Positions 3,409 to 56,346 of a stretch of DNA of 64,000 nt are shown here, in pieces. This stretch comes from Escherichia coli (GTDB taxonomy: Bacteria; Pseudomonadota; Gammaproteobacteria; Enterobacterales; Enterobacteriaceae), in assembly GCF_024298765.1 (NCBI RefSeq), contig NZ_CP101210.1; one strand, 5' to 3'. The translations under genes and the position numbers were made by a program. Each line of letters begins with the position of its first letter. Positions within the stretch are counted from its first letter, which is position 1. The notes beneath the pieces were generated by a model. The model did no database searches. It was not told the origin of the DNA and saw only the letters and a program-made list of their open reading frames with translations.

Positions 3409-3911
3409 TGATGTTTTTACGTCAGGAAGACTTTGCCACGGTAGTGCGCTCCACCCCGCTTGTCTCCCTCGACTTTATTGTTGAGAACAGTCGCGGCGAG
3501 TTTCTGCTTGGCAAAAGAACCAACCGCCCGGCGCAGGGTTACTGGTTTGTGCCGGGAGGGCGCGTGCAGAAAGACGAAACGCTGGAAGCCGCATTTGAGC
3601 GGCTGACGCTTGCGGAACTGGGGTTGCGTCTGCCGATAACAGCAGGCCAGTTTTACGGTGTCTGGCAGCACTTTTATGACGATAACTTCTCCGGCTCGGA
3701 TTTCACCACTCACTATGTGGTGCTCGGTTTTCGCATCAGAGTAGCGGAAGAAAAGCTGTTACTGCCGGATGAGCAGCATGACGATTACCGCTGGCTGACG
3801 CCGGACGCGTTGCTCGCCAGTGACAATGTTCACGCTAACAGCCGAGCTTATTTTAATCATGATCCAAGAGCTGTTATTGGTTTAGATAAAAAGGATGTCA
3901 AAAATGTCTGA
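3408..3911 (+). CDS. gmm: GDP-mannose mannosyl hydrolase (Nudix)
   Basis: 167-aa ORF (probable start at second Met, 3411); position after fcl matches the gmd-fcl-gmm order. Confidence 0.85.
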
Positions 3912-5352
3912 TGTACCGTTGATTGCTGTTGTAATGGCTGGTGGTACGGGTAGCCGTCTTTGGCCCCTCTCAAGAGAGCACTATCCGAAGCAATTTCTGC
4001 AATTATCAGGTGAGAATACTTTATTACAGTCAACCTTATTACGACTATCCCCGCTTTCTTGCGAAACTCCATTAGTAATAACAAATGAGCAACATCGCTT
4101 TGTGGTTGCAGAACAATTACGTCAAATTGATCAGTTAAGAGATAATATTATTCTTGAGCCATGTGGAAGAAATACGGCTCCCGCCATAGCTCTTTCAGCA
4201 TTTACAGCTTTGAAGCGTAATGAACAACAGGATCCTATTTTGTTGATTCTCGCAGCTGACCATATTATAAGCAAAGCGGATGTTTTTTGTGACGCTATTC
4301 AAAAATCGAAAACTGTAGCTGAACAGGGGAATATTGTAACCTTTGGGATTATACCTGAATATGCGGAAACAGGTTATGGTTATATAAAAAAAGGAGATCC
4401 TTTTAAAATTTTACCAAATATTACTGATGATAAGTTTTATCATGTCCAACAATTTATTGAAAAACCTAACCATTCGACGGCAGAAGAGTATGTTTCCACA
4501 GGAGAATATCTCTGGAATAGTGGAATGTTTATGTTTAAAGCATCAGTATATTTAGAGGAATTGAAAAAGCACAGGCCTGATATATACGAAATCTGTGAGC
4601 AGACAGCTTCATTATCCTATAACGATCTTGATTTCATACGATTGCCTAAACATATTTTCCAAGATTGTCCGTCGGAATCAATTGATTTTGCGGTTATGGA
4701 AAAAACAAAAAATTGCATTGTTCGTCCAGTAGACATCGGGTGGAGTGATGTAGGCTCTTGGCATTCTTTGTGGGATATTAGTGATAAAACGCAGGATGGA
4801 GATGTCTGTAAAGGTGATATTCTAACTTATAACACTAAAAACAATTATATATATTGTGAATCAGCCCTAGTGGCTGCTGTAGGTGTAGAAGATATAGTTA
4901 TTGTTCAAACAAAAGATGCTATTCTCGTGTCCAAAAAAACTGAGGTTCAGGATGTAAAAAAAATAGTAGAAATGCTTAAGGAACATGAGCGCTCAGAGTA
5001 TATATCGCATCGAGAGGAGTTTCGGCCTTGGGGAAAATTTGATGCGATAGATCAGGGAGAACGATATAAAGTTAAAAAGATAGTTGTGAAACCCGGCGAA
5101 GGACTATCCTTACGAATGCACCATCATCGTTCTGAGCATTGGATTGTTCTTTCCGGCACAGCAAAAGTAACTTTAAACGATAAAACAGTATTGCTTGCTG
5201 CAAATGAATCAATCTACATTCCTCTAGGAGCAACGTATAGTCTTGAAAATCCAGGAATAATCCCTCTGAATCTTATTGAGGTTAGTTCAGGCGATTATTT
5301 AGGTGAGGATGATATTGTACGGCAAAAAGAACGCTACAGAATAGATGACTAA
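3895..5352 (+). CDS. manC: mannose-1-phosphate guanylyltransferase
   Basis: 485-aa ORF; N-terminal [17 protein letters not shown] nucleotidyltransferase motif; C-terminal cupin-like region; exact start uncertain (3895 or 3904). Confidence 0.9.
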
Positions 5353-42888: not shown

Positions 42889-43790
42889 GCAGCCCCCTTC
42901 TGAAATATTTCATCGACCATACTTTCAGAGAGGCGTTCTGCAGAGCAGAGGCGAGGCATGCGAACCGGTAAGTGTTCTGCAGCCTGCGTGGTTGACCAGA
43001 TCACCGGATGCTGCTCTTCACTGCACCAGTCTCCCAGCCAGTTAATCGCGTCATGCCACTCGTTATCTGCCTGCTCCCGGCCCTGACCACCAAGCCAGTC
43101 CAGAGTGTTCAGACGCACGGTTGCACTACCGCCACTCTCCTGTGCCATCTGCGTTAATGCTTTATGTCTGAGAATATCCAGTAGCTGGTTAACCTGGCCT
43201 GTTTCGCTCTGACGTATCACATCACCAAACGCGCCCCAGCGAAGCTCTTCAAGTGCCACATAACAACGTCCGGCAGGGGAAAATGACGCATATCGCCCGG
43301 CGCTCCACCATGAGAATATCTGCTCAAGATGTAACTGCGCCCGCTGAACCTGGTCAACACGGTGGAGTTTTTCTTCAAGATGATTCAGTTTATGGTGAAC
43401 CTGATCGGCCAGGGTGAGTAACTGCTCCCGCGTATCTGCGGAATAATGCGCCAGCCTGGCTGTATCACTGACCAGTGAACTGACCCTGTCGTTTACCCGG
43501 GTAATCGCGTAGTTTGTGGTGGCAAGTGACGTTGTCAGCTCCGTCAGCCAGCGCAGGGATGCCTCAACGCCCTGTGCAAGCGAAGCATTGATGGCATTCT
43601 GCCGTGCAGCACCTTCGCCGCTCAGCCCCTCTTTTAACCGCCGGAAGAACGTGCGCTCTCCGGCCGTGCGGATATGCTCCTGTGCAACATCGATACCGTT
43701 TGCGAAATCAACCACAAATTTTTCAGGAAGACAGGTGAGTACCTGACATACCCGGTTATCAGCAATTTGTTGAATAAATGGTGAAGTCAC
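42885..43790 (-). CDS. coiled-coil protein, possible YjcZ-like partner of dynamin-like GTPase
   Basis: 301 aa, helical/coiled-coil character, no enzymatic motif seen; overlapping stop/start junctions with both flanking genes. Confidence 0.5.
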   Translation of the reverse strand: MTSPFIQQIADNRVCQVLTCLPEKFVVDFANGIDVAQEHIRTAGERTFFRRLKEGLSGEGAARQNAINASLAQGVEASLRWLTELTTSLATTNYAITRVNDRVSSLVSDTARLAHYSADTREQLLTLADQVHHKLNHLEEKLHRVDQVQRAQLHLEQIFSWWSAGRYASFSPAGRCYVALEELRWGAFGDVIRQSETGQVNQLLDILRHKALTQMAQESGGSATVRLNTLDWLGGQGREQADNEWHDAINWLGDWCSEEQHPVIWSTTQAAEHLPVRMPRLCSAERLSESMVDEIFQKGAA

Positions 43791-46183
43791 AGCATTGTCT
43801 CCAGTTCTTCCCTTAACGCCTTACTGTCAGTAATGAGCTCAGGAACTCTTTCATTTAACGCCTGAAGACGCCCGGTCAGCCGTTCCTGCGCCTGCTGATC
43901 GCGTTTATGATCTTCAGAGCTCTGAATCAGCGTGTTACGCAGCTGTTCAACTTTCTCCCTGAATGTACAGAAAAAGGCATCGATTTCCTGGCGGACGGGC
44001 TGGTTAATATCCTGCTCAATGGATGCCTGCAGCTCCCCGAAATATGCCCGGGTCAGTGACATCACCTCCTTCCTGACCTTGTTGATATTGATAACACTGC
44101 GGCTCACATCCACGTTATAGTTTTCCCATCCCCATTCTTTGGTGCCAATCCATCCACAAATCTTTCCAATGAAGCTATCCTTCCGACGGCGACGGGTGAC
44201 TGTCTCCGTTCTTTCCTCCATAAGCGCACTCAGATTTGTTTTTACCGCGAGCCGGGTCTGTAACTGACTGACTGCCGGAAAACTGATTTTTACAGTGAAG
44301 CCCTCATCCGCCAGGCGGGCATTGATACGTCCGGCGATGTTTTCTGTCGCATACAGGGCCGTACCACGAAAACCTGTTTCAATCCCGCTGACGATTTTCT
44401 CCAGCTCAGGCCGGAACTGTGCCTCAGCCTCACTGTGCAGGCTGGTCACGGTCGATTCGATTTGCGTCATCAGTTCAAGGGCTTCCCTGCGATTATTTAA
44501 TGTTATCTCGGGGTTTTCCGGATCAAAGACTCGTATCCTGTCATCCTCCCAGCCCGGGTTATTGATACCGGACCATCGATAAATCTTTCCCCATAATCCG
44601 GACCGGGACCTTCGTTGTTCTGTGTCTTCTTCCTCCAGCATTTGCTGTTCTTTGCGTTTACCGGTTCTGAAATAGTCATTCAGTTCCTCTTCCAGTGAGG
44701 TGCAGACCCCCGTGAGTAATTCCCGGGTTCTGGCATCGATCTCCTCCATGGCCATTCTGACATCAGCGGTCACCTGCTCCTGACAGTCCGCGATTTCCCG
44801 GATATCCGCAAGCAGGCTGGTGATATGCGCCTGCAGTGACTGAATGCTTTGCTGTAGCCCCTGATGGCGTAATGACAGATATTCGCTGACATTTTCCGCA
44901 TTCTGCATCAGTTTTGCGGCGGCAGAATCAACCGCCAGTGCCGCCGCTCTGGAATGGGAACTCTGTATGACTTCCGTTATCAGTTGATCGATAAGTGAGC
45001 CTTCCCACAGGTCTGTTGCCCCTTCAGTTGCCAGTTCGCTGTCTTTACAGACGTAATCTTTTTTCATGCGACCGAAAGCTTCCCTGACAAAATCATCGAC
45101 CCAGGCTTCATCAACAGGAAGGGTTCCGTTTTTCCGTAACTCATGAAGCGCACGGTTAGCCAGGTATGCCTGGCGTGAGGATCCGGGATAAACGCGGGAG
45201 GCGGGCAGCACATCGCTGTTCAGCATTGCCGGAACTTTCTGGCGTACGGCATCTGCCCCATCGCCATTGCGGTCTTTCTCATCAAATTTATTGACCAGCA
45301 CAAACAGGCGGCCAACTGATACGTCCGCAATGGCATTAAGCTCTTTACGGACGTCTTCATCCGCTTTTGAGTTCATCTGGGTGTAATCCATCACTGCCAG
45401 AACCGCAGAAGCTTTCTGCAGTTGATCCCGCATCATCACTTCCATCTGCGGCTGGCCGGCTTCATTAGGGCCGGGGGTATCCAGCAGTGTGAGTGTTCCC
45501 TGGCATGCATCCATCCCCACCAGATGGCTGAATTCCACGTCGATCACCGGCAGTTTCTGCACTTCTGCGTATTCATCAAAAGGAAACTCACTCCCCATTG
45601 CCGCAGCAAGACGAACCAGATCGTTTAACGATGCCAGTCCGGTAAAGATTTCCTCCTCCCCGTGGTATTCATTTTTGAGCCAGCCATCATCCGTCAGAAT
45701 ATCCAGCAGTTCACGGGTATCCCCGGTTTGCAGCAGGGTCTGTGCGACTTGCTGTCCTGCCGGGGTGGCGAGTTTTTCCTGCAGTGTGATTAATAAATTG
45801 CGGACAGGCTGAATATGTTCCAGATGGAGGACCGGCTCAGTTTTTCCGGGAACGTGGCGGATGAGTGTCGGTACAGAGGTCATGGGGCGGTTACGGTTAG
45901 GCAGAATTTCCTGCCCCACAATGGCGTTGATGGTGGTTGATTTGCCTGCTTTCATCGTGCCGACAACAGCCAGCACCATCTCCCTGCGGGCGGTTTTGAT
46001 TTGTTCGCCCTCCAGCTCCTCAATTCTTTTCAGCGCTTTCCGTTTATCAAAAAGCAGCCCGTTTTCGTTCTTACTGTCAGATAACACATCCGGCTCATCA
46101 ACCATTTGCCGGAGCAGATTGATATTCAGTTGCAAAAGCCGGTCGGCTTCATCACAAAGCAGGGCGATGTTCTTTTCGTGCAT
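43787..46183 (-). CDS. bacterial dynamin-like GTPase (CrfC/YjdA/LeoA-like)
   Basis: 798 aa; G1 GTMKAGKST, G3 DTPG, G4 NKFD in N-terminal third; long helical stalk C-terminally; RBS aggaagg upstream. Confidence 0.8.
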   Translation of the reverse strand: MHEKNIALLCDEADRLLQLNINLLRQMVDEPDVLSDSKNENGLLFDKRKALKRIEELEGEQIKTARREMVLAVVGTMKAGKSTTINAIVGQEILPNRNRPMTSVPTLIRHVPGKTEPVLHLEHIQPVRNLLITLQEKLATPAGQQVAQTLLQTGDTRELLDILTDDGWLKNEYHGEEEIFTGLASLNDLVRLAAAMGSEFPFDEYAEVQKLPVIDVEFSHLVGMDACQGTLTLLDTPGPNEAGQPQMEVMMRDQLQKASAVLAVMDYTQMNSKADEDVRKELNAIADVSVGRLFVLVNKFDEKDRNGDGADAVRQKVPAMLNSDVLPASRVYPGSSRQAYLANRALHELRKNGTLPVDEAWVDDFVREAFGRMKKDYVCKDSELATEGATDLWEGSLIDQLITEVIQSSHSRAAALAVDSAAAKLMQNAENVSEYLSLRHQGLQQSIQSLQAHITSLLADIREIADCQEQVTADVRMAMEEIDARTRELLTGVCTSLEEELNDYFRTGKRKEQQMLEEEDTEQRRSRSGLWGKIYRWSGINNPGWEDDRIRVFDPENPEITLNNRREALELMTQIESTVTSLHSEAEAQFRPELEKIVSGIETGFRGTALYATENIAGRINARLADEGFTVKISFPAVSQLQTRLAVKTNLSALMEERTETVTRRRRKDSFIGKICGWIGTKEWGWENYNVDVSRSVININKVRKEVMSLTRAYFGELQASIEQDINQPVRQEIDAFFCTFREKVEQLRNTLIQSSEDHKRDQQAQERLTGRLQALNERVPELITDSKALREELETML

Positions 46184-46244
46184 TATTTAACCTTCCTAAG
46201 ACGCATTTTCATGACAACCACGGAGGAGGTCATTTACTACAAAT

Positions 46245-46279
46245 GATCGTTTATAACGATCGATATGATAGTAACGATC
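46245..46279. promoter_or_regulatory. cluster of three GATC (Dam) sites in 5' region of the dynamin-like operon
   Basis: GATC at 46245, 46258 and 46276; aacgatcgat occurs twice 18 bp apart; 62-96 bp upstream of the GTPase start codon. Confidence 0.5.
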
Positions 46280-46400
46280 GATGTATTCTATTAACTTGAG
46301 AAACACAACGCAAGGGGACAACCCGGGTATGGCTGCGTTTGCATAGTGTTTTCATGGAGTTAAAAATCTGTAACAACAGCCTGGTACATCACCACCGGGT

Positions 46401-47312
46401 TCAGAAGAAAATCCAGTTCCATACCACGCGGGCAACAGAGACCACCGAGTCACGGACGGCGCGCAGAACCGTGCGTGCAACAGAGGCAATGCAGACGCTC
46501 TCCGCCGTGTCAAATATCCGGTCCACCGCACCGGTAAACTGTTCACGGGCCTGAGACCGGACAGACTCCGTGCGCAGCTCGTCCTGCAGGCGGGTCATCA
46601 GGGGACTGGCGGCATGGTCGGGAAGTGCTGTCATGAGCGCACTGACCAGCGTATCCAGTTCCCAGCCGGTGCGGGCCGATACGGCAACAACCCGATGTAC
46701 GGGCCGGAACAGACGGAATACCGCCTCCGTTTTTTCGCGAATGTTCTGTGCCTGTGCGGGAGAAGGCTGAATACCGGCCATATCCCATTCATGGCAGGGC
46801 TCCGTTTTATCGGCCTGCATCACCACAAACAGTACCCGCTGATGTCCCCGGTGCAGGATGTGTCGCCAGAAATACTCATCCACAGACAGGGCACGGTCAT
46901 CGGCTTTAATCAGCCACAGTACCAGGTCCAGTTCGAGCAGAATGTCACGGTACAGGGCTTCATACTCTGCATCCCTGTCCCGGCTCTCGCCCACCCCGGG
47001 CAGGTCAGTGATAACCATGCTGTGACCATGGCCATTCAGACGGAAGCGCTGCACTTCCCGGGGGCCGGCGTGAACATCACTGACCGGGGTGACCTCCCCC
47101 TGAAACAGCGCATTACAGAGTGAGGATTTACCGGCCCCGCTTTTACCCATAATGCCAGGCACGGGTTCGTGACTGGTGAGTTTGCGCAGATGTTCCAGGA
47201 TGTGACGGGAAAGTGAGTAAGGCAGGGAGGAGAGCGGTTTTTCAATTGCCTCAATGGCATCAGACGGATTCATACATGTATTCCCGGTGAAAAAAGACAA
47301 AACCCCGCGCAC
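46401..47312 (-). CDS. YeeP/YfjP/YkfA-family GTPase, apparently intact
   Basis: P-loop GIMGKSGAGKSSL, DLPG, VMQADK motifs; possible start at internal MNPSDAIE (47273). Confidence 0.8.
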   Translation of the reverse strand: MRGVLSFFTGNTCMNPSDAIEAIEKPLSSLPYSLSRHILEHLRKLTSHEPVPGIMGKSGAGKSSLCNALFQGEVTPVSDVHAGPREVQRFRLNGHGHSMVITDLPGVGESRDRDAEYEALYRDILLELDLVLWLIKADDRALSVDEYFWRHILHRGHQRVLFVVMQADKTEPCHEWDMAGIQPSPAQAQNIREKTEAVFRLFRPVHRVVAVSARTGWELDTLVSALMTALPDHAASPLMTRLQDELRTESVRSQAREQFTGAVDRIFDTAESVCIASVARTVLRAVRDSVVSVARVVWNWIFF

Positions 47313-47356
47313 CGGAAAGGTGGCGGGGGATTCACGGAAATAATATCTGTCTGAAA

Positions 47357-48520
47357 TTATCTGGAATCGATTTGGCTGTTCTGCCTGGTTGCCACCAAAT
47401 CATGGTACGCCTGCTCAATCATTTCATTCAGCAGTTTTTTTGGGAGGACACCACGACTTCGGGCAATACTTTCAAGCTGTTTGTGGATTTTTCCGGACAG
47501 TTTCAGAGGGACGGAACCATCAGCACGTTCATCACGCCTTTTTTGTTGCTCCCGGGCACTTTTCAGCTCATCAAGAAGAATCGCTTTATGCTGAATCCTG
47601 GGGGCCTGGAAGGAGACCTGCGTAAACTTCGCTCTGTTCCGTCTGGGATTACTTTCCAGTAAAAACTGTACCTGTTGCTCATTCCAGCCCTCCCAGTTAT
47701 CAAACGTGGCGCAGGCAAACCAGTATTTCTGCTCCGGGGTAAGGGGATTCAGCGGGGTTCCCACACACCGGACCTGCATGGCGTTCCATAACCAGTCACA
47801 CTGTTCACTGTCCCTGCTGTCCACCCACGAAAAGGGGGAGGGGTAATCATTGTTTATGCTGGCCCATTCAGAGAATACTGAGTTGATAATCGTCCTCGTA
47901 GCCTCTGGTCCGGATTTCAGCAGGTAACTGGAGCAGAACCATATAATTTCACGGTAGATTTTATCCGGATGCACGGTGCGCATCGGCTTTTCTCTGGGAC
48001 CGGCAATCTTCGGTTGCGATGGAAACCCCGTGGCAAACCGCAGATGTTCCGGGGGCATTCCTGAACGTTTTTCAGGAATGGGTGTGAGTCCTGCGTTTCT
48101 GGTCTTTTCCGCTTGTCCGGTATTGCCTCCGGCCGGAGTGTTGTCGGGAGTATCTTCCGGAGGCGAGGTGTTTTCATTAGTTGGGGGAACAACAGCAGAA
48201 CTGTCCATCTCCGGAATGGGTTGAGGGGCATAATCACTGTGGTAGCCAGGGGAAAGCGTTAAGTCCCGAAGGATGACATCAGGTTCCGGGCAGTGAGTGC
48301 CACCGGGAGTGAACGGGAGTTGTTGCTTTTGGGAGAAAAATGTATTGTGAATGCGGGTATACAGCTGGAACAGAAAAAAATAAGATGCCCGTGGTTCTTT
48401 TTTTAACCACTGTGTATATTCCTCTATGGCACCGAGCTGTTGTTTGTGCCGTTTTACAGCATCGATATACGGACAGCTGGTGCAGATATCATCCAGTTCC
48501 TTTCCCACAATACACCTCAC
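47357..48520 (-). CDS. hypothetical island protein with low-complexity Pro/Thr-rich linker
   Basis: 387-aa ORF; central PPTNENTSPPEDTPDNTPAGGNTGQ region; C-terminal helical segment; no recognised catalytic motif. Confidence 0.45.
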   Translation of the reverse strand: MRCIVGKELDDICTSCPYIDAVKRHKQQLGAIEEYTQWLKKEPRASYFFLFQLYTRIHNTFFSQKQQLPFTPGGTHCPEPDVILRDLTLSPGYHSDYAPQPIPEMDSSAVVPPTNENTSPPEDTPDNTPAGGNTGQAEKTRNAGLTPIPEKRSGMPPEHLRFATGFPSQPKIAGPREKPMRTVHPDKIYREIIWFCSSYLLKSGPEATRTIINSVFSEWASINNDYPSPFSWVDSRDSEQCDWLWNAMQVRCVGTPLNPLTPEQKYWFACATFDNWEGWNEQQVQFLLESNPRRNRAKFTQVSFQAPRIQHKAILLDELKSAREQQKRRDERADGSVPLKLSGKIHKQLESIARSRGVLPKKLLNEMIEQAYHDLVATRQNSQIDSR

Positions 48521-49984
48521 CTGCTTTTCTCACATTTGCAGATTTTAAAAAAGCAAACAAAAACCTCCGTACATGATGTACAGAACAATCTACCAGGTAG
48601 TGGCGTCAGAAAACCTCCGGGCCGCCTGCACTTTCCGGAATGCGCCGGTTATGAAAAACCGGAAATTCAGTCTCTGTTGTAAGATGTACCCTCTGATACT
48701 ACGTTTTCTCTGTGTATTTAACTCACTGTATTTATTGTCTTTTTAAGCTTGACTGATATTCTCCGGTCATAGTGTGCCGGATATACATCCCGTAAACTTC
48801 TCATTTTTATATAAAAATACTTGCACTCTCTTCAGCGCATCTGTCTCCTTTAAGTAAAAAATGTTTTCACGTATTGCTGTAAATTCATTTTAAATCAGTA
48901 TATTACCTTGATATTGCTGTCTCCTGGTTTGATGCGTAATCGTTCTGCCTTTCTGGATGATTCTGGTGCTTCCGGGTGCATTCTCCTCTGCACATGCAAC
49001 AGTTCGTCATCGCCACGCTCCCAAAAAGCATATAAAAACGAATCGAATTTGATATTTTTTTCAATCGTTTTTCATAGGAATTTCGTAGGGTATTCTCCGC
49101 TATAACCTCCATATTTGCTGTCTTTTTCTTCATAAATCGTATGCAATATAGCCTGTCTGTCAAGACCTCTTCTCTGCTGTTGAGGAGACGATCTCATTTT
49201 TGGTCTTTTCCGGGAGAGAGGCTGTCAGATGAGCGAGCCGGATATACTGTCAGAGGTACACCCCGTAGCAGACCTGTGCTCCCATTTCCGCGATCCGGAA
49301 CCAACAACACCCTACGGTTAATACCATTTGAAGCGTCAGGTACTGCAGGAAGTTCCCCCCTGCGCGGACATCGGTTCCTGCCGACATCTCACAATACGGC
49401 CAGACTGTCATGCAGTAACACCCGCATGCGGTCTGCGGTTTTAAGCGCACTCTCCCGTTTTCAGTGCACCGATAATGCGTCATAGTAAGTCTGGGGGAAG
49501 TTACGGAATGCCTGTTAAGTGGTGCCGTGGGTGGAGACAGCTTACTTTTCTACAGCAACTGCAGTCATTCAGGATGATCAGGAGATATTCTGTCAATGTC
49601 ACGATCCTGCCATTTTCGTACCCGCTAAGATACTTCCGTTACTGATGCTGTCCGCTTTTCACCATTTCATCCTCACTGACAGGCGTTGCGTTTTGGGTCA
49701 TCACCACAGCTTTACGTTTCTCTTTTAACCGGTAACGCTCTCCTTTGATATTCAGCGTGGTTGAGTGATGCAGCAGTCAATCCAGGAGCGCTGTTGTCCG
49801 GCAACCACCATATCAACTTCTTCCCGGGTGTGGCGGAGAGGTGGTATCCTGGCTGAGTTTCGAAGCGAACCGTTCTTTTTGACGGGCGCATTTTACGTCC
49901 GGGCTGAATGTAGTAACGCGGCATGGAACGTCGGCCCGTATACCATTGCCTTAATCTCCGCAAAGATAACCTCGTCATTCCGGA

Positions 49985-49992
49985 CATTCTCT
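49985..49992. repeat. 8-bp target-site duplication (left) of IS66-family insertion
   Basis: cattctct identical to 52430-52437. Confidence 0.85.
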
Positions 49993-50075
49993 GTAAGCGT
50001 CGTCTGAGTACCGTCTGGTCCCGAATCCAGGATCCTGTAACTTAAGCACCCACTTATTTTGCAGGTGGACACCTC

Positions 50076-50459
50076 ATGCGCGCTAAAGAAAGACTTCCCC
50101 GGAAACACTATTCCCCTGAATTCAAAATGGAACTGGTCAGGCTGGCTCTTGAAGAAGAAGGCAGTATTGCCGCACTGGCCCGGAAACATGACGTCAATGA
50201 TAACCTGCTCTTTAAATGGATAAGGCTCTGGCAGCGTGAAGGGCGGGTCTGTCGGCCCCGAAAAAACTCATCGTCGCTTCCTGCCCTGATACCCGTGCAG
50301 CTTCAGGCGGGCTCTTCTCTCCCAACCTTCGAACTACCATCCTGCTCTCCTCCCGCTACCTGCCACATAAAATGTCGGGGAGGAGAAATAACACTGACTC
50401 ATCCCTCTGCTGAACTCATGAGCACTGTCCTGCGCGAACTGATGCGGGGGCCTGTATGA
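50076..50459 (+). CDS. IS66 family accessory protein (orf1/TnpA)
   Basis: 127 aa; HTH-like N-terminus; first ORF of IS66 element. Confidence 0.8.
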   Translation: MRAKERLPRKHYSPEFKMELVRLALEEEGSIAALARKHDVNDNLLFKWIRLWQREGRVCRPRKNSSSLPALIPVQLQAGSSLPTFELPSCSPPATCHIKCRGGEITLTHPSAELMSTVLRELMRGPV

Positions 50460-50803
50460 TAAATCTTCCCGCAGGCACAAAAATCTGGCTGGTTGCCGGT
50501 ATCACCGATATGCGCAACGGCTTCAATGGCCTCGCCGCAAAGGTGCAGACCGCGCTGAAAGATGACCCGATGTCCGGCCACGTCTTCATCTTCCGGGGAC
50601 GCAGCGGCAGTCAGGTAAAACTGCTCTGGTCCACCGGCGATGGTCTGTGCCTGCTGACAAAGCGACTGGAACGTGGTCGCTTCGCCTGGCCCTCAGCCCG
50701 CGATGGCAAAGTGTTCCTGACGCCGGCGCAACTGGCGATGCTGATGGAAGGTATCGACTGGCGACAGCCAAAGCGGTTACTGACATCCCTGACCATGTTG
50801 TAG
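50456..50803 (+). CDS. IS66 family accessory protein (orf2/TnpB)
   Basis: 115 aa; overlapping start with orf1 stop; typical IS66 organisation. Confidence 0.8.
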   Translation: MINLPAGTKIWLVAGITDMRNGFNGLAAKVQTALKDDPMSGHVFIFRGRSGSQVKLLWSTGDGLCLLTKRLERGRFAWPSARDGKVFLTPAQLAMLMEGIDWRQPKRLLTSLTML

Positions 50804-50852
50804 CGCTCTTTATCCTGGTTGTCGCAGAATAAGCCTGGTAAAATACAGGCTT

Positions 50853-52388
50853 ATGAACGACACCTCTTCTGACGACATCCTTCTGCTGAAACAGCGCCTG
50901 GCCGAACAGGAAGCGTTGATCCACGCCCTGCAGGAAAAGCTGAGCAACCGGGAACGCGAAATAGACCATCTGCAGGCGCAACTGGATAAGCTGCGCCGGA
51001 TGAACTTCGGCAGTCGTTCCGAAAAGGTATCCCGCCGTATCGCGCAAATGGAAGCTGACCTGAACCTGCTGCAGCAGGAAAGCGATACGCTGACCGGCCG
51101 GGTGGATGACCCGGCAGTGCAGCGCCCGCTGCGTCAGACCCGCACCCGCAAACCGTTCCCTGAGTCACTCCCACGGGATGAGAAGCGGCTGCTGCCGACT
51201 GAGCCGTGTTGCCCGGAGTGCGGTGGTTCGCTGAGTTACCTGGGTGAGGATGCCGCCGAACAGCTGGAGCTGATGCGCAGCGCCTTCCGGGTTATCCGGA
51301 CAGTCCGTGAAAAGCATGCCTGCCGTCGGTGCGATCGCATCGTTCAGGCCCCGGCTCCTTCGCGCCCCATCGAACGGGGGATCGCCGGACCGGGGCTGCT
51401 GGCCCGAGTGCTGACCTCAAAGTATGCAGAGCACACACCGCTGTATCGCCAGTCGGAGATCTATGCCCGCCAGGGTGTAGTGTTGAGTCGTTCTGTACTG
51501 TCGGGCTGGGTGGATGCGTGTTGTCGTCTGCTGGCACCGCTGGATGAAGCCCTTCAGCACTATGTCCTGACCGACGGCAAACTCCATGCTGACGATACGC
51601 CTGTCCCGGTGCTGTTGCCAGGCAATAAGAAGACGAAGACCGGGCGCTTATGGACGTACGTTCGAGACGACCGCAACGCCGGATCAGCGCTGGCCCCCGC
51701 AGTGTGGTTCGCTTACAGCCCGGACAGAAAAGGTATCCACCCTCAGACCCATCTTGCAGGCTTCAGTGGCGTACTGCAGGCTGATGCCTACGCCGGGTTC
51801 AACGAGCTCTACCGCGACGGCCATATAAAGGAAGCCGCGTGCTGGGCCCATGCCCGCCGAAAAATCCACGATGTTCACGTCCGTACCCCGTCAGCCCTGA
51901 CGGAGGAGGCGCTGAAACGGATCGGCGAGCTGTATGCCATCGAGTCGGAGCTCAGAGGTAAAAGAGCAGAGGAACGGCAGGCAGTCCGGCACCAAAAAGT
52001 GCTGCCGCTGCTGGCGTCACTGGAGGGGTGGCTGCGGGAGAAACAGAAAACCCTCTCAAGGCACTCAGAACTGGCGAAGGCGTTCGGGTATGCGCTGAAC
52101 CAGTGGCCGGCGCTGACCCGCTATGCAGAAGATGGCTGGGTGGAGGTGGATAATAACATTGCCGAAAACGCCCTACGACTGGTCAGTCTGGGGAGAAAAA
52201 ACTGGCTGTTCTTCGGCTCGGATCATGGTGGTGAGCGCGGTGCGTCACTGTACAGTCTTATCGGGACGTGCAAATTAAACGGCGTGGATCCGGAACGCTA
52301 TCTGCATCATGTACTTGATGTCATCGCCGACTGGCCTGTGAACCGGGTGGGTGCTCTGCTCCCGTGGCGGGTTACTCTGCCCGCCTGA
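50853..52388 (+). CDS. IS66 family transposase (orf3/TnpC)
   Basis: 511 aa; N-terminal leucine zipper, CPECGG...CRRCD zinc motif, DDE region. Confidence 0.9.
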   Translation: MNDTSSDDILLLKQRLAEQEALIHALQEKLSNREREIDHLQAQLDKLRRMNFGSRSEKVSRRIAQMEADLNLLQQESDTLTGRVDDPAVQRPLRQTRTRKPFPESLPRDEKRLLPTEPCCPECGGSLSYLGEDAAEQLELMRSAFRVIRTVREKHACRRCDRIVQAPAPSRPIERGIAGPGLLARVLTSKYAEHTPLYRQSEIYARQGVVLSRSVLSGWVDACCRLLAPLDEALQHYVLTDGKLHADDTPVPVLLPGNKKTKTGRLWTYVRDDRNAGSALAPAVWFAYSPDRKGIHPQTHLAGFSGVLQADAYAGFNELYRDGHIKEAACWAHARRKIHDVHVRTPSALTEEALKRIGELYAIESELRGKRAEERQAVRHQKVLPLLASLEGWLREKQKTLSRHSELAKAFGYALNQWPALTRYAEDGWVEVDNNIAENALRLVSLGRKNWLFFGSDHGGERGASLYSLIGTCKLNGVDPERYLHHVLDVIADWPVNRVGALLPWRVTLPA

Positions 52389-52429
52389 CCAGCTTCACTT
52401 CGTCAATACGGTTCTCACTGCACGCTTAC

Positions 52430-52437
52430 CATTCTCT
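52430..52437. repeat. 8-bp target-site duplication (right) of IS66-family insertion
   Basis: cattctct. Confidence 0.85.
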
Positions 52438-53346
52438 GCCAGGCATATGTCGATGTAATCCATAAACGATTTCAGCTTACCCCTTTTGTGGCCAGTCTTT
52501 CTGGCTGGCGGTTCAGGGGATGTTTTCTGGTTATCGTGTACCACAAAGCAGGGATATTGCCCCGATAGTCACATTTCAGATTGATCGCGGTCTGAAGATG
52601 TGGCACTGAGGTAACGTGCTGGTGTCACTGGTATTGCTGAAGTTATGGTTTTTCGGGGTCAGGTGAGCCTGTTGTGTGTATGCTTTTTGTTCAGGTCAGA
52701 GGGGGACTGTGTGGACAGCGGCTTTTGTCTCCGGGCATTCACGCCTGAACGATGAATGCGATTTTCAGCAATATTTGTCTTTGTGACACTCTCTGGTTGA
52801 GAAGCTAATGCGCGCCCCTGTTTCCACAGAGAATGAGGCTTGCCATCAGCCGAAACATCAGTATTCCACGCCATACAGACGGCGCCTGACCATGTGCTGA
52901 TGCAGGTAAAATGTTTCACTACAACTGTTCGGGTTGCTATGCAACGAAACAGCGATTCTCACGATCTTTAACTGCAACGTTTTTCCGCCTGAAAGCTGAC
53001 TGCCTCCTGCTGAGGTGGGAGGCTATGATTCAGTGCGTTTATAGTCTCCGGGGTATGCATGTACCGGAGCATACCATTTCTGGTGGATAACAAGCCGGCA
53101 CATTCAGACTGCAGTGAAGATGGAGGCACCTGGTTGTGAAGAACGTTTCTGCCCGTGGCTGCTTCGCATCATCAATGGTATTCATACCCGCTCAGAAATG
53201 ACCGGGTGCTGAAGCCCTCCGTTATCGCGCAGTATAATGACGTATATGATCTGTGGACGAGTGAGCGGCGTGCCTGATGTACGCCGCTATTACTGTATTT
53301 TACCACAGGGCTGGTTTTCTGCTGCCAGCCCTGTGGTTCTCAGACA

Positions 53347-53964
53347 TCAACTGTGAGCGGCATCAACCGATGTACGGTATGCCATAAGCACGTACTGATC
53401 CATCAGATTTGTCAGTGGTTCACTCTGACCCTGACGTGCAATGATCCATTGCTCCAGATCTTTTTCTGATTTGTGTTTCAGGTTTTTCGTCCAGTCGTCA
53501 AGGCTGTTTCCGGTCATTAAGTCAAGCCAGCAGAGCCAGACCAGTTTGAGACGTAACTCCGTGCCGCCAAACTGACGGAAGAGGCTGATCAGTTTGTTTG
53601 CCAGAGAATGTTGCTTCAGGCGCTCACATTCAGACAGCAGGATCCCTTCCAGCATCGGATGATGAACCAGCAGGTGTTCGCTGGTGCATAAATTCACCAC
53701 CAGATCATCATCCAGGGACGGGGAGCTCCGTTTGTCCGGACCATAAATCAGCCGGTGCAGACTCTGGGGAACGATGGCAATCTCCGGTTTTTCGCCATTG
53801 AATGACACCCACCCGGGCGTCAGATTATGGAAATAGTAGATATTCGGATGACACACGCCCCATGATACGGCGTGCCGGGTGAAGCCGGTCAGCCATTTCT
53901 GGTAGTTTTCATGGAGCAGCTCGTAACGGGTCTGATACTGTTGTTTCATTTTCATATTCCTCAC
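53347..53964 (-). CDS. hypothetical prophage-island protein
   Basis: 205-aa ORF co-oriented with and downstream of alpA; no motif recognised. Confidence 0.4.
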   Translation of the reverse strand: MRNMKMKQQYQTRYELLHENYQKWLTGFTRHAVSWGVCHPNIYYFHNLTPGWVSFNGEKPEIAIVPQSLHRLIYGPDKRSSPSLDDDLVVNLCTSEHLLVHHPMLEGILLSECERLKQHSLANKLISLFRQFGGTELRLKLVWLCWLDLMTGNSLDDWTKNLKHKSEKDLEQWIIARQGQSEPLTNLMDQYVLMAYRTSVDAAHS

Positions 53965-54042
53965 GGGGGATAACAGGCAGCAGAGCGCCGCCGGCAGGCC
54001 GGAGATTGCGTCTGCTGTGGGCGAAGGGTTAGTGGTTAAAAA

Positions 54043-54249
54043 TTACAGACGGGACTGTGCAATACGCGCCTGCAGCCAGGCTTCCACTTCACTTTTCAGC
54101 CAGCGGGAGCTGCGCCCCATTTTGATGGGCGCAGGAAAGCCCCCATCTTTGATGAGTTTGTCAAACCACTTATCGGTAAGGCCGGTCAGTTGAGTGATAA
54201 ACGCCATGTCGACCATCTGGTCATCCATCAGCGAAACTGGGGTAGCCAT
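54043..54249 (-). CDS. alpA: AlpA-family prophage transcriptional regulator
   Basis: 68 aa from MATPVSLMDDQMVDMAFITQLTGLTDKWFDKLIKDGGFPAPIKMGRSSRWLKSEVEAWL; start trimmed from ORF 54447. Confidence 0.8.
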   Translation of the reverse strand: MATPVSLMDDQMVDMAFITQLTGLTDKWFDKLIKDGGFPAPIKMGRSSRWLKSEVEAWLQARIAQSRL

Positions 54250-54413
54250 GAGAATGTTCCTCCGGATGTTGTTAAACCAGCCGGTGTGGTCATGAAAACA
54301 GCGCGCCACCTTCACCGGCATAACAACCGGGGAGAAACGTAAAAAATAATCGGGAATGTGGCTGTCCGGAGATAAACGGGGGGATTGCGATGGCAGAGCC
54401 GTAGCGGAATCCC

Positions 54414-54425
54414 GGGGGGGGGGGG
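54414..54425. repeat. G12 homopolymer tract
   Basis: 12 consecutive G read directly, about 165 bp upstream of alpA start. Confidence 0.9.
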
Positions 54426-55376
54426 TTGCGAAAAGATGCTTCCGCACGCACGCGCGATAAAGAGGGGATAGTTTTCGTGAGGACAGGGAGAGAAGCAGGC
54501 GTTCTGATAATTGCAGAGTTGTTTTCGGAGGTGGTTACAGTGAGTCAGCCCGTTCCTGGCGAGCAGGAGACTGATATCACCGATGGGATAAGGTTGTCTG
54601 ATTGGTATTATAAATATAAGAAGTCATCAGAGAGTAACGTAAAGGATTTGCCAGAATAACCTAAGAGAGTAAATCTCTCCGGTAACAGAGCGCTGTGAAG
54701 CATTCTGTATCAGAGTGCAGATACATGAACGCTGATGCGTAAAATCAGCAGTGACACGCCAGCTCCCCCTATGCCCATTCCTGTATAAGACATGAACTGA
54801 GTGTATTAATGCTTCTGCCCTGAGACTGAGCCGGTGAGTGAGGGGCTGAGAAATCCCTCTTGACACAGCTCTAACCAGAAATACTTCCCCGGTTGTTGCG
54901 GTGCGTCCGGATCCCCGATAACGGAACACTAAGGCTGTATTGCGGGACACCGGGTAAGTAGCAGCCCGTAAGGCGTTCTGTCAACGCCAGAAAAAATGAT
55001 TTCCCACACGCGTTATAGACTCACTCCTGTGGACCTGGAAGCCCGTAACTCTGCGGTTGCCCACTGACTGACGGAACTGACCGCAAATTTTACGAGTGCG
55101 TGCTGGGCTTCAGTCTGGTCACCTGAGCGTTCGGTAACGGAGGCGCGGGCGGTAATAGGCTGATTTTCAGGTATTACCGGCTTACAGCGTGTGGTTGATA
55201 TTGAGGGGCTGTGAGTTTCGCGTATTTGTCAGAAACCCAGACGAGTTTTCCTGTATGGGACGAAATAAGGCAGCGGCAATACCTGGAAAAATTTAATATG
55301 GTATGAAGGAGAACCTGTCGGTTACGCTTAATATACCCGGTACACTGTCAGCTCAGGGGATACATGAACCGTTATC

Positions 55377-55580
55377 TCACCAGCTACACAGTATATACAC
55401 ACTGACGCTGACAGTAGTCAGCAGGACCACAATAATCAGTGCCAGCAGTATGGTAACGATACGGTCTGTATTCCGGTAATAGCCGAAGGGGTCGACAGAA
55501 CCACAATACGGGCAACACACTGTATTATGAGTAATCGCGTTTCCACAGTCCCTGCACTTCTTTTTGCGTATCACCATCAC
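55377..55580 (-). CDS. small zinc-ribbon membrane protein
   Basis: 67 aa; CRDCG...CCPYCG followed by C-terminal TM helix IVTILLALIIVVLLTTVSVSVYIL. Confidence 0.45.
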   Translation of the reverse strand: MMVIRKKKCRDCGNAITHNTVCCPYCGSVDPFGYYRNTDRIVTILLALIIVVLLTTVSVSVYILCSW

Positions 55581-55740
55581 TCCCTCCTCACAGCCTTACC
55601 CGTAACCGGTTTTTTACATTAAAAAAACAACGCTGAAAATTCAACCGTCAGTCCGGAGACGACCGTTCGGGTTATCACAGAGTGCCTGAGACAGTGTCCT
55701 GCCGGAGGTCACTTCAGGGACTCTGCGCATTTTTTACGAC

Positions 55741-56346
55741 GTGGCTATTCCGTATGAACCATACGGAGATTTAACCATGACCTACAAATACAACCCCTTC
55801 TGGCAGCAACGTATTCGTGAGACGGTGCGGCACGCACTGAATGTTCATCCCCGCCTGACGGCATTGCGGGTTGACCTGCGTTTCCCGGATGTACCGGCAG
55901 CAACGGACGCAGCTGTGATATCCCGCTTCATCAATGCCCTGAAAGCCCGAATCGACGCTTACCAGAAACGTAAGCATCGGGAAGGTAAACGCGTGCATCC
56001 CACAACCCTGCATTACGTCTGGGCCCGGGAGTTTGGGGAGTGCAAAGGTAAAAAACACTATCACCTGATGCTGCTGGTTAACCGGGATACCTGGTGTCGT
56101 GCCGGTGATTACCGTGCTCCGGGATCACTGGCCGGGATGATTAAACAGGCGTGGTGCAGTGCCCTGGGAGTGGATGTCGGGTGCCATGCCACGCTGGTGC
56201 ATTTCCCGGCCTGGCCGGCGGTGTGGCTGGAACGCGATGATGACACTGGCTTTCAGCAGGTGCTGGAACGTGCTGACTATCTGGCGAAGGAACATACCAA
56301 AGCTCACTGCACCGGTGAGCGCAATTTTGGCTGTAGCCGGAGTTGA
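55741..56346 (+). CDS. hypothetical prophage protein (possibly YfjJ/YagK-like)
   Basis: 201-aa ORF; His/Cys-rich (HYHLMLLVNRD...); family assignment from memory only. Confidence 0.4.
   Translation: MAIPYEPYGDLTMTYKYNPFWQQRIRETVRHALNVHPRLTALRVDLRFPDVPAATDAAVISRFINALKARIDAYQKRKHREGKRVHPTTLHYVWAREFGECKGKKHYHLMLLVNRDTWCRAGDYRAPGSLAGMIKQAWCSALGVDVGCHATLVHFPAWPAVWLERDDDTGFQQVLERADYLAKEHTKAHCTGERNFGCSRS

Follow-up and report, generated by a model that had tools for sequence, protein, structure and literature searches.

A hypermutable poly-G tract upstream of an alpA-like gene of Escherichia coli: a probable slippage-prone repeat in a decaying island and a landing site of ISEc20

A run of twelve guanines is located upstream of an alpA-like gene in the stretch of DNA analysed here (64,000 nucleotides of an Escherichia coli chromosome; hereafter, the window). 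We consider it reasonably likely that this tract is a young, slippage-prone single-base repeat, probably without function, which lies in a decaying genomic island and is also a landing site of ISEc20. We would describe it as a new instance of a hypermutable homopolymer, remarkable in E. coli chiefly for its length. The coordinates of the tract and the surrounding features are listed in Table 1.

Table 1 Features of the window at and around the G12 tract.
Feature	Position	Strand	Evidence and remarks
G12 homopolymer (C12 on the alpA-sense strand); expanded portion of a variable G/T motif	54414–54425	+	Sequence; same allele in 38 assemblies
Complete variable segment, bounded by the fixed flanks ...GGAATCCC and GCGAAAAG...	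54414–54427		G12TT in the window; fetched sequences and match spans elsewhere
Unoccupied ISEc20 site: CCGGGGGG, 8 of the 10 bases of CCGGGGGGTG, which abuts ISEc20 at the occupied site	54412–54419	+	
Less constrained stretch between the conserved core and the tract, with a second G6 run (54378–54383)	54361–54413		77–79% identity in divergent paralogues
alpA-proximal upstream region; the tract lies outside it	54250–54360	−	97–100% identity in all island paralogues
AlpA-family helix-turn-helix gene (68 aa)	54043–54249	−	Pfam PF05930 match; RefSeq helix-turn-helix transcriptional regulator
C-rich, G-poor stretch of rut-like composition with C12 at its centre	54300–54650	−	Plus-strand GC skew of +0.20 to +0.48

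On the plus strand, the sequence at the tract reads ...GGAATCCC GGGGGGGGGGGG TTGCGAAAAG... and, over a longer stretch, ...GCCGTAGCGGAATCCC-GGGGGGGGGGGG-TTGCGAAAAGATGCTTCC.... The gap between the tract and the ATG of alpA (54249, minus strand) was 164 nt, confirming the distance of about 165 bp given in an earlier reading that was made from the letters of the window only (the sequence-only reading). Its description of the DNA at the tract as otherwise non-coding also holds, the two open reading frames (ORFs) that touch the tract being unconserved among the island paralogues. The next-longest run of G or C in the 64-kb window has 7 bases. Under an iid model, a window of this size would contain 0.0035 G/C runs of at least 12 bases. 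Therefore, the observed run is far above chance. The exact G12TT allele with an identical 132-bp context was found in 38 independent complete E. coli assemblies, indicating that the count of twelve is reproducible and is not a one-off error; W2-5 and ECCWS199 are examples of G12 strains. E. coli is usually regarded as having neither long G:C homopolymers nor simple-sequence-repeat switches, and runs of such length (up to G19) would be an exception on its chromosomes.

Of 5,426 complete E. coli genomes, 2,751 contained matches to the 132 bp surrounding the tract, frequently with two or more island copies per genome. Exact-pattern scans of genome contigs across species gave 0 loci, and the distribution described here refers to E. 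coli and gut metagenomes. Alleles were read from the sequence between the flanks GGAATCCC and GCGAAAAG at 40–50 loci of genomes and gut metagenomes. The most divergent paralogues (L033, L034, and L013b) have GGGTGGTTGTT in place of the tract. The short alleles read were G6TTGTT, G7TTGTT, G7TGTT, and G9TGTT, and an interrupted allele was GGAGGGGGGTGTT; short or interrupted alleles were common to many contigs. The remaining alleles belonged to a GnTT series (G10TT, G12TT of the window, G13TT, and G14TT) and to a GnTGTT series, whose long members were read at G14, G15, G16, G17, and G19 and extend over G13–G19 when match spans are included. Among the long alleles, each length from G12 through G19 was represented. 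When all genomes were ranked against the window allele, 38 had exact G12TT and at least 19 records had a span indicating G13TT; the best 60 in a ranking against G16TGTT comprised G13 (at least 8), G14 (ca. 28), G15 (10), G16 (5), G17 (4), G18 (1), and G19 (1), the counts from both rankings resting on match spans except at fetched loci, with G15, G17, and G19 verified by sequence.

These length differences occur in otherwise nearly constant surroundings. At nine loci carrying eight alleles, the flanks of ±600 bp had 0–5 substitutions relative to the window, and lengths from G7 to G19, distributed over the two series, were found among close relatives with near-identical flanks. Two isolates of canine urinary origin from a single laboratory, CUVET19-1993 and CUVET17-1418 (L051 and L052), share every base of the 15,060 bp left of the tract and of the 15,058 bp right of it; the sole difference in these 30 kb is G17 versus G15, which is either real within-clone slippage or a homopolymer assembly error. 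Several other same-study pairs had equal tract lengths. No other position of the region is nearly as mutable as the tract, yet tract length is not different in every genome. The sequence-only reading had regarded the tract as prone to slippage and had proposed comparing related strains; the comparison supports it, since tract length is not invariant. GGAGGGGGGTGTT was the commonest allele among close relatives (spans of 131 and 199 and fetched sequences), as expected if the interruption stabilises the run.

The presence of GGGTGGTTGTT in the divergent paralogues indicates that this 11-nt G/T-rich motif was the ancestral sequence at the position. T-to-G changes, in an order that we infer, would have produced runs of G6–G7, and past about 8–9 G, slippage during replication, the presumed mechanism, would have diversified the lengths within two sub-lineages, GnTT (n = 10–14; G12 in the window) and GnTGTT (n = 7–19). 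The tract would have no effect on alpA. Separately, the G run is the chromosomal site at which ISEc20 has inserted in phylogroup-B2-type genomes. The proposed course of expansion resembles neutral growth of a single-base repeat, in which an interrupted G/T-rich ancestor survives in paralogues, interruptions are lost stepwise before length becomes unstable above about 8–9 units, and an interrupted allele (here GGAGGGGGGTGTT) is common and apparently stable. Against a neutral reading, simple neutral substitution would predict less directionality than is seen in four separate T-to-G changes within an 11-nt motif. The sharing of G12 by 38 assemblies from diverse hosts and of G14TGTT by about 28 could reflect inheritance, mutational equilibrium, or selection on length. 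Considerably more than a hundred complete E. coli genomes carry this run, which segregates at lengths of up to 19 G. The locus therefore lends itself to measurements of natural homopolymer instability in an enterobacterium proficient in mismatch repair, and it calls for caution in variant calling and assembly. A literature search returned no account of the tract, of a target preference of ISEc20, or of homopolymer control of alpA.

In many genomes, the flanks of the tract are 1.45 kb apart, and the insert is annotated as 'IS110-like element ISEc20'. The occupied alpA site of E. coli FDAARGOS_1304 (L002; IS at 3567–5020) reads GGAATCCC-G6-TGCCCCTATT...AAAGTAAC-G5-TGCGAAAAG. Of 60 rows sampled at even spacing from the 3,536 matching records, about 14 have ISEc20 within the tract, and the estimated total is roughly 800–1,100 records, or about one-quarter to one-third of the locus-bearing genomes. 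Nissle 1917 and SE15 carry ISEc20 in the tract, and the same flank split was found in CFT073 and an O25b:H4-ST131 strain. No ISEc20 is present in the window. Five other ISEc20 insertions (L042–L046) have unrelated flanks and are located in focB, near hemW, in an alpha-2-macroglobulin (yfhM-like) gene, in a zinc-ribbon gene, and near yfdF. All six sites have G4–G9 on one side of the element and G3–G6 on the other. ISEc20 thus appears to select G runs generally, which would explain the occupancy of the alpA site in B2-type lineages (Nissle 1917, SE15, and the strain of L002). Where ISEc20 occupies the tract (L002, 3190–4788), its transposase gene is co-oriented with alpA and ends about 195 bp upstream of the ATG. 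Judging from this arrangement, read-through from ISEc20 could drive alpA in the occupied lineages.

The 225-nt 5′ non-coding end of ISEc20 is predicted to fold into two large stem-loops. Loop 2 contains AAUAGGGG and GUAAC, which correspond to both termini of the element. Loop 1 contains UGCCCCCA and CCGGGGGGUG; CCGGGGGGUG reproduces exactly the ten bases found at the alpA junction where it is occupied, and the window allele agrees with this 10-mer at 8 of 10 bases. Bridge RNAs of the IS110 family have a donor-binding loop and a target-binding loop, and in the latter the 5′ side corresponds to the top strand of the left half-site and the 3′ side is complementary to the right half-site (Durrant et al. 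2024, PMC11208160). ISEc20 resembles IS621 and its relatives in having a long 5′ non-coding end; one of its predicted loops has copies of the termini, as would be expected of a donor-binding loop, and the sequences in the other match the G/C run at the insertion site. In contrast to the unique 11–14-nt targets of the IS621 type, the target of ISEc20 is a homopolymer of variable length. No Rfam model matched the ISEc20 locus. Several crossover (core) models were tried for ISEc20 on the empty and occupied focB pair, and none fitted cleanly.

RNA-guided targeting of G runs by ISEc20 is a well-motivated but putative reading of the predicted fold and of the likeness to bridge RNAs. A more extended proposal is tentative: the bridge RNA of ISEc20 would be programmed for a G:C homopolymer, the tract grown by slippage would be its cognate site, so that growth creates the target and length modulates it, and insertion would rewire or lock the expression of alpA. 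If true, ISEc20 would be a natural case of bridge-RNA targeting of low-complexity DNA, and this side observation might matter more than the tract itself.

In Neisseria, Haemophilus, Campylobacter, Helicobacter, and Bordetella, variable poly-G/C runs at contingency loci alter gene expression. The sequence-only reading had suggested that the tract could act as a length-variable promoter spacer or phase-variation switch for the island regulator. On such a view, changes in length would alter the spacing of promoter or regulator sites and toggle alpA, the island regulator or excision factor. If tract length affected alpA, island excision or regulation would be coupled to a switch that is random and reversible. 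The tract has the length that slippage requires (about 8 or more bases), is located upstream of an AlpA-family gene, and, as at contingency loci, is a long G:C run with lengths that differ between close isolates and even between near-identical strains, fitting slipped-strand mispairing. The following observations at the tract, at homologous islands, and in alpA-proximal DNA nevertheless make such a switch unlikely.

A consensus scan of 54000–55800 found no sigma-70 −35/−10 pair spanning or at the tract on either strand and no terminator at the tract. Reading of both strands gave only lone 4-of-6 hexamers (TTGCGA and TTCGCA) with no partner at 16–18 nt. A search of Rfam at gathering and permissive thresholds gave nothing relevant in the window. 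Local RNA folds on both strands of the window and in three paralogues did not beat those of shuffled sequences (z = −0.5 to −1.2), and no hairpin was shared across the paralogues; a small hairpin beside the tract was not kept and was no stabler than shuffled sequence.

The ORFs touching the tract are a 134-aa extension of alpA starting from GTG and a 77-aa ORF on the plus strand starting from TTG. The latter, which begins just past the tract, was rejected as a gene owing to 1–2-nt indels or early stops in L032, L034, and L035; it had no Pfam match, and in some genomes PGAP labels it 'hypothetical protein'. Likewise, the extension of alpA that runs in frame through C12 (PPPP) was rejected as coding, being closed in L034 and unconserved. 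All three alpA-sense frames are open because this strand is C-rich and G-poor, and the ORFs within 54300–54650 are a compositional artefact. The excess of C over G keeps the three frames open for 45–160 codons upstream of alpA and is a trap for ORF callers; PGAP 'hypothetical proteins' are annotated in this skewed region in some genomes.

Sequence constraint upstream of alpA does not reach the tract. The alpA coding sequence is 86–99% identical among the paralogues, and the drop in identity at 54361–54413 places the end of the conserved cis-element about 55 bp short of the tract. The region 54250–54360 is likely the promoter, operator, and 5′UTR core of alpA, as judged from its conservation, and no sigma-70 consensus promoter was recognised within it. 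The 110 bp before the ATG are more conserved than the alpA coding sequence and the distal upstream region of the paralogues (5–23% different), and may represent either a strongly constrained cis-element or a gene-conversion tract.

The tract is not maintained across homologous islands, most of which have GGGTGGTTGTT, G6TTGTT, or the interrupted GGAGGGGGGTGTT instead. An IS of 1.45 kb within the tract is tolerated in the many records described above. Furthermore, E. coli BE2-5 (L049) has a 10.7-kb deletion corresponding to 43504–54239 of the window, which removed all but 10 nt of alpA and fused a truncated RdcB-family gene to the final 10 nt of the alpA 5′ end; the upstream region is retained with a G13 tract despite the loss of alpA. 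Unlike contingency loci, the tract lies outside any recognisable −35/−10 spacer and any conserved ORF and is not conserved at homologous loci, and unlike the hosts of such loci, E. coli is not known for repeat-based switches of that type. Because the tract is positioned in neither a promoter spacer nor an ORF and lacks conservation at the locus, its instability resembles that of contingency loci but we do not class the tract as a phase-variation locus. Taken together, the tests of constraint, dispensability, promoter, RNA, and coding features argue against a conserved regulatory role. An incidental effect of tract length on the expression of alpA, or on a divergent transcript, may exist. We know of no homopolymer-based control of alpA or vis.

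A pure G run could also have been left by insertion and loss of an IS110 element instead of by slippage. ISEc20 is present in the tract in many genomes, G runs flank all six sites examined, and focB provides a possible precedent. The usual empty focB site reads GAA-GGGGGTTGGGG-CAAAATGG and resembles the G6TTGTT form of the alpA site. An O145 strain (L042) has ISEc20 in focB with G6 on both sides. UTME-3 has no IS at this site and reads GAA-G6-CAAAATGG, and its focB is frameshifted. This site, 5 nt shorter than the wild type, has the appearance of a footprint left when an IS was lost between the G6 repeats on its two sides. However, this sole footprint-like case shortens the run. The right flanks at alpA also differ: the occupied allele is G6[IS]G5-TGCG, whereas the window has G12-TTGCG and others have Gn-TGTTGCG, and no empty Gn-TGCG allele was seen among those read. 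An IS footprint is an unlikely origin for the window allele, given its right flank of TTGCG in place of the TGCG beside the IS. In addition, the graded series of lengths suits slippage better. We consider an origin as an ISEc20 footprint quite improbable.

Rho favours RNA that is C-rich and unstructured, and it silences DNA acquired by horizontal transfer. If alpA were transcribed from upstream of the tract, C12 in the leader might serve as a Rho-loading (rut) site that boosts termination, and its length might tune read-through. Between 54300 and 54650, C strongly outnumbers G on the alpA-sense strand and folding predicts no stable structure, in agreement with the C-rich, G-poor, unstructured RNA of about 80 nt or more that is expected of a rut region. 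A perfect TATAAT is located at 54612–54607 on the alpA-sense strand, but it lacks a −35. On the other hand, no promoter was predicted upstream of the tract, the C-rich composition is also present in paralogues that lack a long run, and the idea is wholly inferential. A role of the tract in Rho loading is therefore very doubtful.

A sequencing or assembly artefact, with the run miscounted or absent, is scarcely credible: homopolymers are error-prone, and differences of 1–2 bases, as between clone-like assemblies, may partly be technical, so the warning of sequencing error in the sequence-only reading stands for such differences, but it fails for the existence of the tract and for the G7–G19 range, since assembly error cannot account for that range across two series of flanks or for 38 independent assemblies with exactly G12TT in the same context, and short-read metagenome contigs independently contain G7, G9, and G10.

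The window was identified as E. coli chromosome, with the his leader and the sRNA STnc240 present. The slippage-prone repeat resides in a degenerate CP4/P4-like island beside the his operon and sbmC. Alignment to annotated loci showed that dacD, sbmC, and yeeA precede the island, which carries a cbtA/yeeW remnant and antirestriction, DUF932, patatin-like, dynamin-like, and GTPase genes. These are followed by IS66 (in the window), a gene for a 200-aa hypothetical protein, alpA, and about 1.5 kb of non-coding DNA, beyond which are a YagK/YfjJ 'inovirus Gp2' gene and then two zinc-ribbon genes. IS elements and deletions in the island differ from genome to genome, indicating that the island is decaying.

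The annotation of the alpA-like coding sequence is that of a 100% identical locus in E. coli W2-5. Its product matched PF05930 (Phage_AlpA) with 25.2 bits (cut-off, 21) over residues 13–59. AlpA of the E. coli K-12 prophage CP4-57 and Vis of phage P4 are regulators and excision factors. The setting here resembles theirs: the gene next to the tract encodes a Phage_AlpA domain, its island is CP4/P4-like, a YagK/YfjJ-domain gene is close by, and related copies have YfjI-family neighbours. Unlike CP4-57 and P4, the island here is degenerate and contains IS66, ISL3, and deletions.

Two further observations were made in the intergenic region between alpA and the yagK/yfjJ gene. At about 54990–55135 (plus strand), the window contains a remnant of an Hha/YmoA-family gene, reduced to a 23-codon ORF with its ATG at 54996. 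In paralogous islands (compare L033, 2104–2280), this gene is annotated as intact (58 aa) in some and as a pseudogene in others. Closer to the tract, at a distance of 19 nt, GCACGCACGCGCG (54444–54456) is a 13-nt perfect purine-pyrimidine alternation, a Z-DNA-prone type of sequence, and it was unchanged in every island paralogue aligned.
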